DNA of 35,626 nt from a virus (lineage: Duplodnaviria > Heunggongvirae > Uroviricota > Caudoviricetes), in the IMG/VR virus record IMGVR_UViG_2874962485_000008; one strand, given 5' to 3'. How positions within the stretch are numbered: the stretch's first letter is position 1; every line of letters begins with the position of its first letter. The position numbers were made by a program. Of the stretch, positions 30,001-35,626 are shown piece after piece.

Positions 30001-33000
30001 GTTTATTGGGTCTGGACTCCACACCGCGGGAGAGCTGGCTCAGCGCAATCAACGGAAAACCACCGGATTTTGCCAGGCCTTTAAGCCCCTTTGAGATTTC
30101 ACCCACGGCAAGGTCATGACGCCCCGTGGTTCGGGTTTTTATCAGCCCGAGATAATCAACCACCACCAGCGCCGTTTCCGGATATTTAATCAGGTGGTGT
30201 TTCGTTGTTGCGCATATCTCATCAATGGCCAGGTTCGCCTGGTCCACCATCCAGATATTGCGCCCGGTCATCCGCCCCACCCCTTGTGAGAAACGCGTCC
30301 AGTCTTCATCTTCAAAGTGAGCCACAGATTTCAGGCGTGATACTGGCATCCCTCCAGCCGCAGACACCATACGTTCACCAATCTGGATGTTCGCCATCTC
30401 CATGGTGAACAGAAGCACACCATGCCCCTGCTCAGTCACCTTGTCGATGATGTCCAGCGCAAGTTCGGTTTTCCCCATCGAAGGACGGGCGGCAATGAAT
30501 ACCAGGTCTCCGGGCTCCATACCGCCTGTTTTTGCGTCCAGTTCATCAATACCGGTCATCAACGTCCTGGATTTCTCCAGCCCCTGATTCCGGCATTCAA
30601 CACGCTCAACCACTTCCGGAAGCACATCATCAATATGTACCGGCTGAATGACGCCCTTTCCTGTCGACAGTGTGACCATCATGTTCTGCGCATCCTTCAG
30701 GGCATCTTCAGCTGCTTCACAGGTATGCGCATCACGTAATTTCTGCAGCGCCTCATTCAGTGTTTTTTCTGCATCGCGCAGTGCGGCATTGCGCCGCAAC
30801 GCTGCAACATAGTGCTCCAGTGAAGACTTCACCCAGGTTTTACGCCCGGTATCAGTAATCACCGGGGCAAGTTCCGGCATCTCATTACACAACAGCACGG
30901 GGTCAATCACTCCTGAAACACGGGCCTGTCTGCAGATGCCTGTATAGATATCCTGATACGCTCGTACAGAAAAAACGTCCGCTGGCAGTGTGGCCAGAAT
31001 ATCCATCACTTCAGGATCTGCTCCGCGCAGAAAGAACGCGCCGATGACAGCGCCTTCAAGGTCATCGTTACGCCATACTGGAGTTGTCATGCAGCCACAC
31101 CTCTGATACGAGAACGGTAACTGGGCCAGTTAAACGACAACCAGTTGCGTCCCCCGTCTGTGATCCTGTCGGCAATTCGGGGACTGATGAACGCCCACAA
31201 CTCTTCCGGTGAGAGGTTACTGATCAGAATGGTGGGCAAGATACTTTCGTACCTGGCGTTGATAATTTCCTGCAAAATAGCCATTTCAGCCGCGCTGCCA
31301 AACTGAACGCCAACTTCGTCGATGATCAGCAAATCCATTGACGCATAACGCTCAATAACTTCATCCGCTGTTTTTTCGCTGTCATTCCGCCAGCAATTTT
31401 TCACAGCACGGGTAAGGCGCATCACGTCGGTGATCTCCACACTGGCCAGATAGTTACGGATGATGTGTTTTGCCATAGCCACAGCCAGATGATTTTTTCC
31501 GGTACCACAACTGCCGGTCATAACAAGACTGGTACCGTTCTCCAGCATATCTGGCCAGTTCTCCGCATAGCGGCGACAGGCCGCAAGATTTCTGGCTGCG
31601 CCAGGATTAACCTCCAGATAATTATCAAACTCGCAGTCCCGAAAACGCAGGGCAATTCCGGCGTTATCAGTCAGCTCTTCCGCCTTGATGGACGACAGCT
31701 CCATGGTCAAATCGTTGGCCTCAGCGATTAAGCAGTCAGGGCAGCATGAAATTTCTTCTCTGTCCTCGCCATTACGATCGCTCCACACCAGTATATGCGT
31801 GTGATATTCGCCATGTTTTTCGCAATATCCGCGACCTTCACGCATCAGGCAGGAACGATAAGGCCATGGCTTTTCGCCCTTCTGAGCAAATGCAATCTCT
31901 GCCCGTAACTCATCCATTCGCGCCTGTAGTCTTTTTTGTTGTTCACGCAGGTTAAACGTCATCATCGCTGTCACCTCAGAATGTCTGAAGTGGTCAACAA
32001 AAACTGGCCACCGAGTTAGAGTTTTTCCAGTATCGATTTTCCGATTCGTTTGGGGGTAACCCACCGTTATATTCGTGCGGTCTTAGTGCACTGTAATATC
32101 CAACGATATAGTCCGTTATGGCGTGAGCTGCCTCGCTGAAGCTTACGTAACCCACCACCGGCATCCATTCGTTCTTCAGACTCCTGAAGAAGCGTTCCAT
32201 TGGGCTGTTATCCCAGCAGTTTCCGCGCCGGCTCATACTCTGTCTGATCTGGTATCGCCACAATAACTGCCGGAACTGCCTGCTCGTATAATGACTGCCC
32301 TGATCGCTGTGGAACATCACCCCGCCGGGCTTACCACGGGTTTCCCATGCCATTTCCAGCGCTTTCATGGTGAGCCTGCTGTCCGGCGAGAACGACATGG
32401 CCCAGCCCACTGGTTTTCTTGCGAACAGGTCGAGAACAACGGCGAGGTACGCCCAGCGCTTACCCGTCCAGAGTAGAGTAAGAGGCAGGGCGTAGTCGGA
32501 CTATTTCCCTGCCTCTCCTCCCCGAACCGGACGTGCACCTTTCAGCGCATCCGGCTCTCCATTTAAATGCTGGCGAACGCCATTGCCACTTCTGTAAAGC
32601 GCGATGTATACGTGTTTCTGGTCTCCGTCCTCAGATAGGGATTACCTTCGGGTAGCCGCCAGCGGAACAGCTTCTTGCCTTGCCCCACCAACCGGTACAG
32701 TATTTCGCCGCTGAGCTTGCCGTGATTGGTTTTACCAAATAAAACCCACGTTTTGCTCTGACCCGGTTTCGGTGATTTACACCACCACCTCATCAGGGAA
32801 GCGATACCTGTACGGTATTTGCGGGCCAGCCAGTGAGCCAGCTTCCAGAACACGACACGGTCGATATAGCTGAAGACTTTGGCCTTAAAATCAACGAACT
32901 GATAGAACATGGCCCAGCCTTTCAGTTTTCGGTTGAGTTGTTCAGCCATATCGACTTTGCTTTCACTGTAGTTGCCTGATAACAGTGCTGTCAGCGATGC

Positions 33001-35626
33001 GGCGAAGTTTCTGGCTTTCTCCTGCGGGATCGTTGAGACCACTCGCATCTCGCCATAACGACTGCGTTTGCGAATGATCCTGTGCCCCAGAAAGATAAAG
33101 CCGTCATTAACATGGGTGATTTTAGTCTTATCCATGTTCAGCCTGAGTTTCAGACTGCCTTCGAGCACACCCCGACACTCCTCCCTGATGGCTTCCGCCT
33201 GTGCTTTGGTGCCTTTGACGATGAGGACAAAATCATCGGCATAGCGGCAGTACGCCACCGCGGGTTTCCACTGCCAGTTTTCTCTGACCGCCGTACTTCG
33301 GCCCCGTTGGATACTGTTATTCCAGTACCACCGATCTTTTCTGGCTTTCCCGCTCAGGTAGCGCTCATGCAGGTATTGATCGAACTCATTCAGCATGATG
33401 TTCGATAATAGCGGCGATATAACACCGCCCTGTGGCACACCTTCACTGGCCGCCCGAAAGAGACCGACATCGATATGTCCCGCCTTGATGGTTTTCCACA
33501 GCAGAGTCATGAAACGTGCGTCACTGATCCTGCGGCGTACAGCCTTCATCAGCAGTCGATGATGTACGGTGTCGAAGTAACTGGACAGGTCGCCTTCAAT
33601 CACCCAGCGTCCCCGGGTTTCACCACAGTCTGTGAGCTGTAATTTCACCGTGCGGATCGCGTGGTGGACACTGCGCTCAGGCCGGAAGCCATATGAGAGC
33701 GTATGAAAATCACTCTCCCATATCGGCTCCATCGCCATCAGCATGGCCCGCTGAACAATACGATCCCGCAACGCGGGGATACCCAGTGGTCGCAGTTTGC
33801 CGTTGCTTTTAGGGATGTAAACCCGTCTGGCGGGCAAGGGCTGGTAGTGGCCTGAGAGTAATTCATCCCTGAGGATTTGCAGCTCAACAGCCAGTCTGGC
33901 CTGTAGCATTGTTTTGTTCACGCCATCAACGCCGGGGGTATGGGCCCCCTTTGATGAAAGCGTGATCCGCGCCGCTTCAGCCAGCCATTCTGGTTGTGTT
34001 ATCAGACGCAGCAGCCGTTGAATCCGTAGGGACGGATCGGTGGCTGCCCATGTGGCAAGCTTGCGTTGCATTTCGCTGATTATCAAAGGTCTTCACCTCG
34101 TTAGGTCAGTTAATTCACGTCGCAAACACATTCAAACTGCTTCCCTTCGCCATGTAATGGGCTTTCCCCATCGCGGACTACTACGGAAGCTCCGCCAGCC
34201 AGCGCGTCATCGGAGCCATGCCCCCTTAACATCCGTCGCTGACCTTCCCCGGTTTACCTGCCTGGACTCAGGCATACTGAGGAGGCTGCCCGTCGCACTC
34301 TTTATCCTTGCTTGCCGCAAGTTGGCAGAAGTCAGCAACGCAAGTGTGATAGACGCTGCTGCCCCGGTGTTTCGCATACATGTCAAAACACCTTCGACCG
34401 GCAGTGCTTACGTATCACTGCCAGTTCCTCCTGCACGGCCTGTCAGATCACGTAGGCCGTGGTGACGTTTTCAACCCACAGAGGCGGATTAACGGGTTCA
34501 TGTTCTTCAGCCTTTCAGTACTTAACCTTGAGGATCATCTCGGCTTAGTGATCTCGCCTCAATCCCCGTTGTCAGCGGGTTACATCACCCTGCGGGCATG
34601 CCGCAGGTCACTGCCGCTCAGGTTCTCCACCGTCACACCCGGTGGGATTGTTGGGTTTCTCATCGTGAGTTACCGGTTCAATATTCCAGACAGACTCGCG
34701 GTTCATTTAAGCATCCATGCCCGCCCTGAACTCCGGGCACACTATAGGTCACATCACCGCACCACACCTGATTTGGCTCGGTCACGGCGAACTGCCTTTC
34801 AAGGTAGTTAGGGATAGCAACATGTTCATGACCACCACGTTTATACCGGTGAGTCGGCTGCTGACAGCTGACCAGCCCCAGCTCTTTCATGAGCCTGCCA
34901 GCAAGCCAGCGTCCCATCTGGTAGCCTCTCCGGGTTGCCATTGTGGCGATGCTTCTTGCTCCGGCCGAACCGTGGCTGATGCCATGTAGCTCAAGTACCT
35001 GACTGCGTAATACAGCCCGTCTGCCGTCTGGTTTTTCAGGACGGTTTTTCCAGTATCTGTAGCTGCTGCGATGAACCCCGAACACATGGCAGAGTGTGAC
35101 CACAGGATAATGCGCTCTGAGTTTCCCGATTATCGAGAACTGTTCAGGGAGTCTGACATCAAGAGCGCGGTAGCCTTTTTTAATATTTCATTCTCCATTT
35201 CAATGCGTTGTAGCTTTTTCCTGAGCTCACGGATTTCAATTTGTTCCGGGGTAATGGGGGAGGCTTTTGGTGTTTTGCCCTGACGCTCATCACGCAGTTG
35301 TTTGACCCATCTTGTCATTGTGGAAAGGCCAACATCCATAGCTTTGGCGGCATCTGCCACCGTGTATTTCTGGTCAACAACCAGTTGAGCGGATTCGCGT
35401 TTAAACTCTGCGCTAAAATTTCTTTTTTTCATTGGAGCACCTGTGTTGTTCTGAGGTGAGCATATCACCTCTGTTCAGGTGGCCAAATTCAGTGTGCCAC
35501 TTCAGGGCTAACCTGATGGATCGCCATGCGGATTTCATTAATCGCTTTGATGCGATCATCTTCCGGCAAGCTGGCGAGAAATTGCGTTAAATCCTGCGTT
35601 AATCGTTGTTGCATAGTATCCCCCAT

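Follow-up and report, generated by a model that had tools for sequence, protein, structure and literature searches.

The window considered here is the whole of a 35,626-nt stretch of viral DNA (IMG/VR record IMGVR_UViG_2874962485_000008, assigned to the Caudoviricetes). Close to one end of it lies a copy of the insertion sequence (IS) IS911, a member of the IS3 family, whose transposase gene orfB is interrupted by a group II intron. This intron is, very probably, a full-length and apparently functional copy of the known mobile intron E.c.I4 (S.f.I1), lodged at its natural homing site in IS911 orfB. The components of the IS are listed below.

31986-35504, minus strand: IS911 (IS3 family) with the intron, 3519 bp, or 1249 bp after removal of the intron
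35469-35504, minus strand: left terminal inverted repeat (IRL) of IS911, adjoining ybdM
35130-35432, minus strand: IS911 orfA, intact, 100 aa, with an HTH_Tnp_1 domain (Pfam PF01527, E = 3.8e-14)
35175-35181, minus strand: slippery motif A AAA AAG (A6G) near the end of orfA, recognised as a sequence motif
34743-35187, minus strand: 5' exon of orfB, the frame opening at 35187 and the exon terminating in ...GAT GTG ACC TAT A
32473-34742, minus strand, the same strand as IS911: group II intron E.c.I4 (proposed ORF class A), 2270 nt, 5' GUGUG, 3' CUCUAC
31994-32472, minus strand: 3' exon of orfB, extending to the stop codon and encoding the remainder of the rve catalytic core
31986-32021, minus strand: right terminal inverted repeat (IRR) of IS911, adjoining the prophage at a point 17 bp upstream of the start codon (ATG, 31966-31968) of a DnaC-like gene

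Apart from the intron, the element displays the features that define IS911, namely, a length of ~1250 bp, imperfect terminal inverted repeats, the orfA and orfB genes with the A6G motif, and a DDE (rve) transposase. The inverted repeats, which in IS911 begin TGAAGTGG, match at 24 of the 36 positions between IRL and IRR. In IS911, the A6G motif directs a programmed -1 frameshift that yields the OrfAB fusion protein. Near-identical copies of the IS are labelled IS911 in RefSeq, and records labelled 'IS3-like element IS911 family transposase' and ltrA match 100% of the length of the composite of IS911 and the intron at 99.5-99.6% identity.

The preliminary description of this DNA had placed a group II intron in sense orientation inside IS911 orfB, on the strength of the 5' GUGUG, a domain V, a reverse transcriptase (RT)/maturase gene and the 3' AC, and each of these hallmarks is borne out by the present analysis, with all 2270 nt of the intron on the minus strand. 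The parts of the intron are as follows.

34742-34738 and 32476-32473, minus strand: intron ends, GUGUG and CUAC, respectively, which conform to the conserved GUGYG and AY
32563-34071, minus strand: intron-encoded protein (IEP), an ltrA-type RT/maturase of 502 aa from the ATG at 34071
33232-33243, minus strand: YADD of the IEP, aa 277-280
32524-32557, minus strand: domain V, 34 nt, with the AGC triad and a GAAA loop, sequence GAGCCGGAUGCGCUGAAAGGUGCACGUCCGGUUC
32473-32521, minus strand: domain VI and the 3' end, from the Rfam structure line
32479, minus strand: bulged branch-point A of domain VI, 7 nt before the 3' splice site

The ribozyme was identified through its 3'-terminal portion. The covariance-model search proposed in the preliminary description matched the Rfam family RF00029 (domains V and VI) at 32559-32473 across the full model (1-77), with a score of 64.9 bits against a gathering score of 40 (E = 1e-10). 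Within domain V, the Rfam structure line places an asymmetric internal bulge, with 1 nt on the 5' strand and 3 nt on the 3' strand. The only other Rfam matches to the intron are to two plastid D5 models: in the region 32400-34800 of the window, no family representing group II domains D1-D4 was matched even at E <= 1, which implies that covariance-model scans would detect only the last 87 nt of introns in this class. The permissive scan additionally returned a CRISPR-DR8 match at E = 0.92, which we dismiss as noise.

The ORF within the intron, which had been described as encoding 507 aa, indeed has this length when read from a TTG at 34086, and 502 aa when read from the ATG at 34071, the RefSeq-style ltrA start. 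The 507-aa version occupies intron nt 657-2180, between domains I-III and domain V. In the 507-aa numbering, the protein matches the Pfam families RVT_1 (aa 91-337, E = 1.5e-34) and GIIM (aa 361-426, E = 1.3e-10); these are the only matches in a Pfam scan at E <= 1e-3, in which no endonuclease domain (D/En or HNH) was found.

For comparative analysis of the RNA, species-representative genomes were scanned with the IEP, yielding 311 related stretches; 80 loci with an IEP identity of 66-100% were fetched, and the regions flanking the ORF were aligned for the 58 that had usable flanks. These 58 relatives have the same conserved ends as the intron in the window, with the exception of two (L046 and L049) that start with GUACG rather than GUGYG. 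At a further locus (L063), the 5' end is unalignable, and the intron there may be truncated or differently inserted. The RNAalifold consensus of 55 relatives contains conserved hairpins. The minimum free energy fold of intron nt 1-656 as a single sequence is uninformative on its own.

The boundaries of the intron follow from the host gene. Deletion of 32473-34742 leaves a 1249-bp IS911 in which orfB has an open frame of 307 codons, with ...WCGDVTY-I-WTGKRW... across the exon junction. In the DNA, the predicted junction (marked here with a slash) is ...GTGACCTATA / TCTGGACGGG..., so that the intron is in phase 1, splitting an Ile codon of orfB, A/TC. The joined OrfB yields a full-length Pfam rve match (profile positions 2-102 of 102, 111.7 bits), whereas the 3' exon on its own gives only a partial one. 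When a 120-bp query spanning the joined junction was compared with intron-free copies of IS911, it was found to be 100% identical to them and contiguous, and because of this identity and contiguity the intron boundaries can be considered exact. The empty junction, counting places that cover at least 80% of the query, was detected in 2827 of 5426 complete Escherichia coli genomes. The claim that joining the exons restores orfB (VTY/IWTGKRW) thus stands, with respect to the reading frame, the complete rve domain and the match to empty copies alike. These features of an intron within IS911 are not attributable to chance.

The manner in which the intron would recognise this site can be deduced from the complementarity between its exon-binding sites (EBS) and the intron-binding sites (IBS) of the 5' exon, which we assign as follows.

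34375-34380, minus strand: EBS1, UGUAUG, intron nt 363-368, within the 9-nt terminal loop of the hairpin 351-377
34743-34748, minus strand: IBS1, CCUAUA, exon positions -6 to -1, forming 5 of 6 pairs with EBS1
34464-34468, minus strand: EBS2, ACGUC, at intron nt 275-279 and within the loop of hairpin 267-282
34751-34755, minus strand: IBS2, GAUGU, exon positions -13 to -9, forming 5 of 5 pairs with EBS2

Both hairpins are supported by comparison of the relatives. The stem of the EBS1 hairpin is present in the RNAalifold consensus, its sequence being very divergent among the relatives with complementarity kept, and in the stem of the EBS2 hairpin, the pair U269-A280 is replaced by C269-G280, a compensatory change. 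The pairing with the exon likewise leaves a signature. Exon position -10 and intron position 276 show a mutual information of 0.58, the highest among all exon/intron column pairs. Over 55 distinct intron/exon combinations, 538 of the 605 EBS/IBS cells are paired, compared to 506 +/- 5 with permuted exons, and none of 5000 permutations attained the observed value. In relatives in which the target contains TGG in place of TAY, EBS1 contains GCC, a compensatory retargeting.

Two other candidate segments were discarded. The first guess for EBS1, UGUGGGU at intron nt 263-269, which pairs with ACCUAUA via G-U pairs, was rejected on two grounds: nt 267-269 are base-paired to nt 280-282, in a helix that shows the compensatory change from U-A to C-G among the relatives, and positions 264 and 265 do not covary with the exon. 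A 'GGUGAUG' motif at nt 153-160 has a high exon complementarity score; both sides are nearly invariant, and the score accordingly carries no information.

The identity of the intron is straightforward to establish. Compared to the copy in strain E24377A (NC_009801 4848623-4850892), the intron in the window has 6 mismatches in 2270 nt (99.736% identity), with identical ends and an identical homing-site flank (-30 to +60); in both cases, the insertion follows ...GTGACCTATA in IS911 orfB. The E24377A copy is listed as E.c.I4-2b in Table S3 of the published catalogue, which gives the coordinates of individual copies (PMC3522654). According to the naming rule of the intron database, introns that are more than 95% identical share the same name (PMC3552965), and the intron in the window falls within that range of E.c.I4. 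E.c.I4 is reported to insert at specific positions in the transposase genes of IS629, IS911, ISEc16 and ISEc31 (PMC3522654). E.c.I4 and S.f.I1, which are 99% identical to each other, belong to ORF class A, a class that lacks the En domain (PMC3552965), and the proposed assignment of the window intron to this class rests on its near-identity to a named member. The window copy resembles the published intron in its boundaries, in its host IS, one of the four published types, and in an IEP that consists of the RT and X domains without En; the only differences from the published copy, none of them substantial, are the six point changes and the location between a prophage and ybdM.

The composite of IS911 and the intron is common, being present, at a coverage of at least 80%, in 781 of the 5426 complete E. 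coli genomes, and across E. coli and Shigella, the arrangement is known from hundreds of genomes. In RefSeq, the composite is habitually annotated as two partial IS3/IS911 transposase pseudogenes around 'ltrA'. For this window, the main use of the result lies in annotation: the 'pseudogene' pieces form a single IS containing a spliceable intron and are not two broken genes. The window element itself is not new: given that the intron is catalogued, the host IS is published, the composite is common and prophage-borne copies are documented, both the element and the arrangement were already known. In many complete E. coli genomes (e.g., NZ_CP142943.1, 3698775-3703516), the match to the composite is broken into 2-3 pieces over 4.7-6.1 kb, and the annotation beneath it includes an IS30 transposase (in some cases, also one of the IS110 family), which implies that the composite itself has been interrupted by further IS elements.

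The intron could in principle be a dead relic that no longer splices or moves and is passively transported by IS911. Copies of E.c.I4 with disrupted ORFs do exist, in SMS-3-5 and in S. flexneri 2457T (PMC3522654), and the locus examined here is clearly rearranged. The state of the intron argues to the contrary: its ORF is complete, and the encoded protein is 100% identical to the IEPs at three loci (L005, L006 and L037) in the genomes of three other species; many plasmids of Shigella flexneri and E. coli carry copies with 100% identity to the intron DNA; and domain V, domain VI, the branch-point A, the YADD, EBS1 and EBS2 are all intact. We consider it very unlikely that this copy is a relic. 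Judged from its sequence, the intron retains all the sequence features required for splicing and retrohoming and occupies its site as a precise insertion guided by the EBS, in keeping with an apparently functional E.c.I4.

The rearrangement becomes apparent from the DNA on either side of the IS, for which the following features are relevant.

1-477, plus strand: ybhB, a core gene at the start of the window, located beside ybhC and bioA in K-12
31087-31968, minus strand: prophage gene for a DnaC-like helicase loader, beside IRR (PHROG 50, E = 1.1e-89)
35505-35626, minus strand: flank consisting of the first 122 nt of ybdM, cut by IS911, with IRL adjoining nt 122

The IS had been described as nested in a prophage. 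This is so on the side of IRR, which adjoins a lambdoid prophage, but not on the side of IRL, which adjoins nt 122 of ybdM, with no duplication. The ybdM fragment is 100% identical to ybdM/ybdN in the genomes listed among the matches, and the gene is found in 5393 of the 5426 E. coli genomes. IS911 thus joins a truncated lambdoid prophage, on the side of its replication module, to a core gene, at a breakpoint between prophage and chromosome.

One route to such a location, implied by nesting in a prophage, would be a simple transposition of the IS911-intron composite into the prophage, without any recombination. Prophage DNA is indeed present on one flank, and E.c.I4 copies borne by IS elements within prophages are documented, in Table S2, for strain IAI39 (PMC3522654). 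Several features of the flanks are nevertheless at odds with this scenario. The second flank is not prophage DNA at all but the interior of ybdM, and homologous prophages continue with ~7 kb of further early genes, among them LvrA-like, ash, Rha and repressor genes, past the point that adjoins IRR. A simple insertion of IS911 is expected to generate a 3-bp (occasionally, 4-bp) target-site duplication. No such duplication is present at the two ends of this IS911 copy: the adjoining triplets, at 31983-31985 and 35505-35507, are GTC and GGG, respectively (...ATGTC / GGGCT...). The missing duplication implies that this IS911 copy is recombinant or rearranged and has no bearing on its identity as IS911. 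Furthermore, K-12 carries ybdM (634.7-635.4 kb) and, ~172 kb away, ybhB (807.4-807.9 kb) on one and the same strand, the minus strand. In the window, by contrast, the two have opposite orientations: ybhB is encoded on the plus strand, and the ybdM fragment on the minus strand, its start codon directed away from IS911. Simple transposition is, in view of these flanks, very improbable. Such flank orientations would result from an inversion between two copies of IS911 in inverse orientation, of which one was located in the prophage and the other in ybdM, but not from a simple deletion. Most likely, this IS911 copy has therefore taken part in homologous recombination (an inversion) with a second copy of the IS. 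It constitutes a rearrangement breakpoint that truncates the prophage and disrupts ybdM. Tandems of an IS and an intron, which exceed 3 kb, have been argued to be more recombinogenic than the IS alone (PMC3522654), so that such composites would make good substrates for homologous recombination.

Some observations weigh against the overall reading of an apparently functional E.c.I4 copy in a recombined IS911. The pairing between EBS1 and IBS1 includes a single mismatch, C-5/U367, and a literature search for splicing or mobility experiments on E.c.I4 found none. The inversion has a single junction as support, the reciprocal junction lying beyond the window, and both junctions between the IS and its flanks are absent from the 5426 complete E. 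coli genomes.

With E.c.I4 as the element, the likely course of its activity can be outlined on the basis of established group II intron biology. The IS911 promoter would drive transcription of the intron together with orfAB. Once translated from domain IV, the IEP would bind the intron RNA and promote lariat splicing at A 32479, and the resulting ribonucleoprotein would reverse-splice into the DNA of IS911 or other IS3-family elements that contain IBS2, IBS1 and a U at position +1. The DNA targeted in this way encodes D-V-T-Y-I and includes the first catalytic Asp of the DDE/rve core. Since the IEP lacks an endonuclease, synthesis of the cDNA would probably be primed by nascent DNA at replication forks. 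The same general architecture of ribozyme and IEP, and retrohoming guided by EBS-IBS pairing, are known from Ll.LtrB of Lactococcus lactis. Its protein LtrA contains D/En domains, and the intron belongs to class ML/IIA and is located in a relaxase gene; the 'ltrA' label that RefSeq attaches to the IEP of E.c.I4 is generic and no sign of orthology to Ll.LtrB.

For the transposase, the consequences would depend on splicing. From an unspliced transcript, OrfA would still be made, and OrfAB would be truncated two codons past the first catalytic Asp; precise splicing would restore orfB, and hence OrfAB, exactly. It is formally possible, going by the joined exons, that splicing could yield an intact transposase mRNA, as the preliminary description suggested. 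One could go further and regard the intron as silent, in the sense that efficient splicing would produce normal orfAB mRNA and leave this IS911 copy autonomously competent for transposition. After in silico splicing, the frame and the A6G site are intact, as are the two inverted repeats and the complete rve domain, and the set of ribozyme and IEP motifs is complete, all of which speaks for this possibility. Experience with other introns of this kind points the other way. RmInt1, an endonuclease-less intron borne by a transposase gene and the best studied of the IS-borne introns, produced ligated exons at a level ~1000-fold (three orders) below that of an intron-less control, and the authors proposed that the intron restrains the spread of the host IS (PMC3035460); IS-borne introns have, moreover, been reported to reconstitute their exons poorly (PMC3522654). 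On balance, we regard a silent intron as rather unlikely. The intron may instead throttle its host IS (PMC3522654, PMC3035460).

The parallel with RmInt1 has its limits. RmInt1, which resides in ISRm2011-2 of Sinorhizobium meliloti, resembles E.c.I4 in being an intron with an endonuclease-less RT/maturase, inserted in sense orientation in an IS transposase gene, and serves as the model for considering whether splicing restores the transposase. RmInt1 belongs to ORF class D and E.c.I4 to class A. The IS that hosts RmInt1 is a member of the IS630 family, and the target sequence of RmInt1 is also unlike that of E.c.I4. The splicing data for RmInt1 are not simply transferable to E.c.I4.

The relatives suggest a broader pattern of targeting. 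In 56 of the 58, the intron occupies the same phase-1 site, after codons for W-x-x-D-(I/V/F/L)-T-Y and one base into a codon for I, V or L; the insertions are in the sense strand, and position +1 is almost always U. The W-x-x-D-x-T-Y motif holds the first catalytic Asp of DDE/rve transposases, and in a Pfam scan of joined exon pairs from seven diverse relatives, rve was matched by six and DDE_Tnp_IS240 (IS6-type) by one. The hosts include Gamma- and Alphaproteobacteria as well as metagenome-assembled genomes (MAGs) labelled as Nitrospirales, Desulfarculaceae, Bacteroidota-type and Planctomycetota-type. The D-x-T-Y motif is missing from the flank at two loci, of which L046 is one.

Two pairing positions coincide with synonymous sites of the target codons. 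The G of EBS1 that faces exon position -2, the third position of TAY, forms 25 U-G and 23 C-G pairs, and the G of EBS2 that faces exon position -11, the third position of GAY, forms 24 U-G and 30 C-G pairs. A G opposite the synonymous pyrimidines of the Tyr and Asp codons would allow a single intron to accept many synonymous forms of the motif. These observations hint that the E.c.I4 clade might be a lineage of retroelements specialised on the codons for the catalytic site of other transposons, with synonymous variation tolerated through G-U wobble, a tentative idea in which our confidence is low. The targeting of D-x-T-Y across the clade is a lead rather than a claim, and the relatives with 66-75% identity may fall within class A or within a different named class. 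Class A comprised three near-identical members in 2013 (PMC3552965) and two in a 2020 survey (PMC7306698), and the wider clade may be under-described. Targeting of this motif throughout the clade is the only point of possible wider value here.

One relative departs from the common host. At L028, in a MAG of Halioglobus sp. (JABSPW010000240.1), the intron is inserted in the transposase gene of an IS6-family element (DDE_Tnp_IS240), at the equivalent position, W-R-M-D-E-T-Y-I. The EBS2 loop of this intron is AAUCAUC (with UCAUC as the pairing segment), compared to AAAUGUC or AAACGUC in the others, and pairs with the altered exon GAUGA, in what looks like a natural case of retargeting.

The remainder of the window is occupied, in the main, by the lambdoid prophage, which is encoded on the minus strand and includes genes for a side tail fibre, J, the tape measure protein, the head protease/portal, the large terminase and endolysin, then four tRNA genes, Q, a DnaB-like helicase and the DnaC-like loader. 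Two features outside the IS are listed here.

1060-2823, plus strand: ipaH-type gene, a 587-aa ORF with LRR_TTSS and NEL domains, for a type-III-secreted E3 ubiquitin ligase of the IpaH type
28267-28577, minus strand: four tandem tRNA genes identified by ARAGORN, Gly-UCC, Thr-UGU, Arg-UCU and Met-CAU

The ipaH-type gene is situated between ybhB and the tail-fibre genes of the prophage. Together with the 100% identity of the intron to S. flexneri copies, this gene hints that the window may derive from Shigella or enteroinvasive E. coli; an exact-protein search matched only short-read contigs of 2-5 kb, which end at the IS. The tRNA cluster lies between the Q antiterminator and the lysis genes. 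A near-identical prophage has the tRNA with the CAU anticodon annotated as tRNA-Ile, so that the one in the window is probably an Ile tRNA with a lysidine modification.

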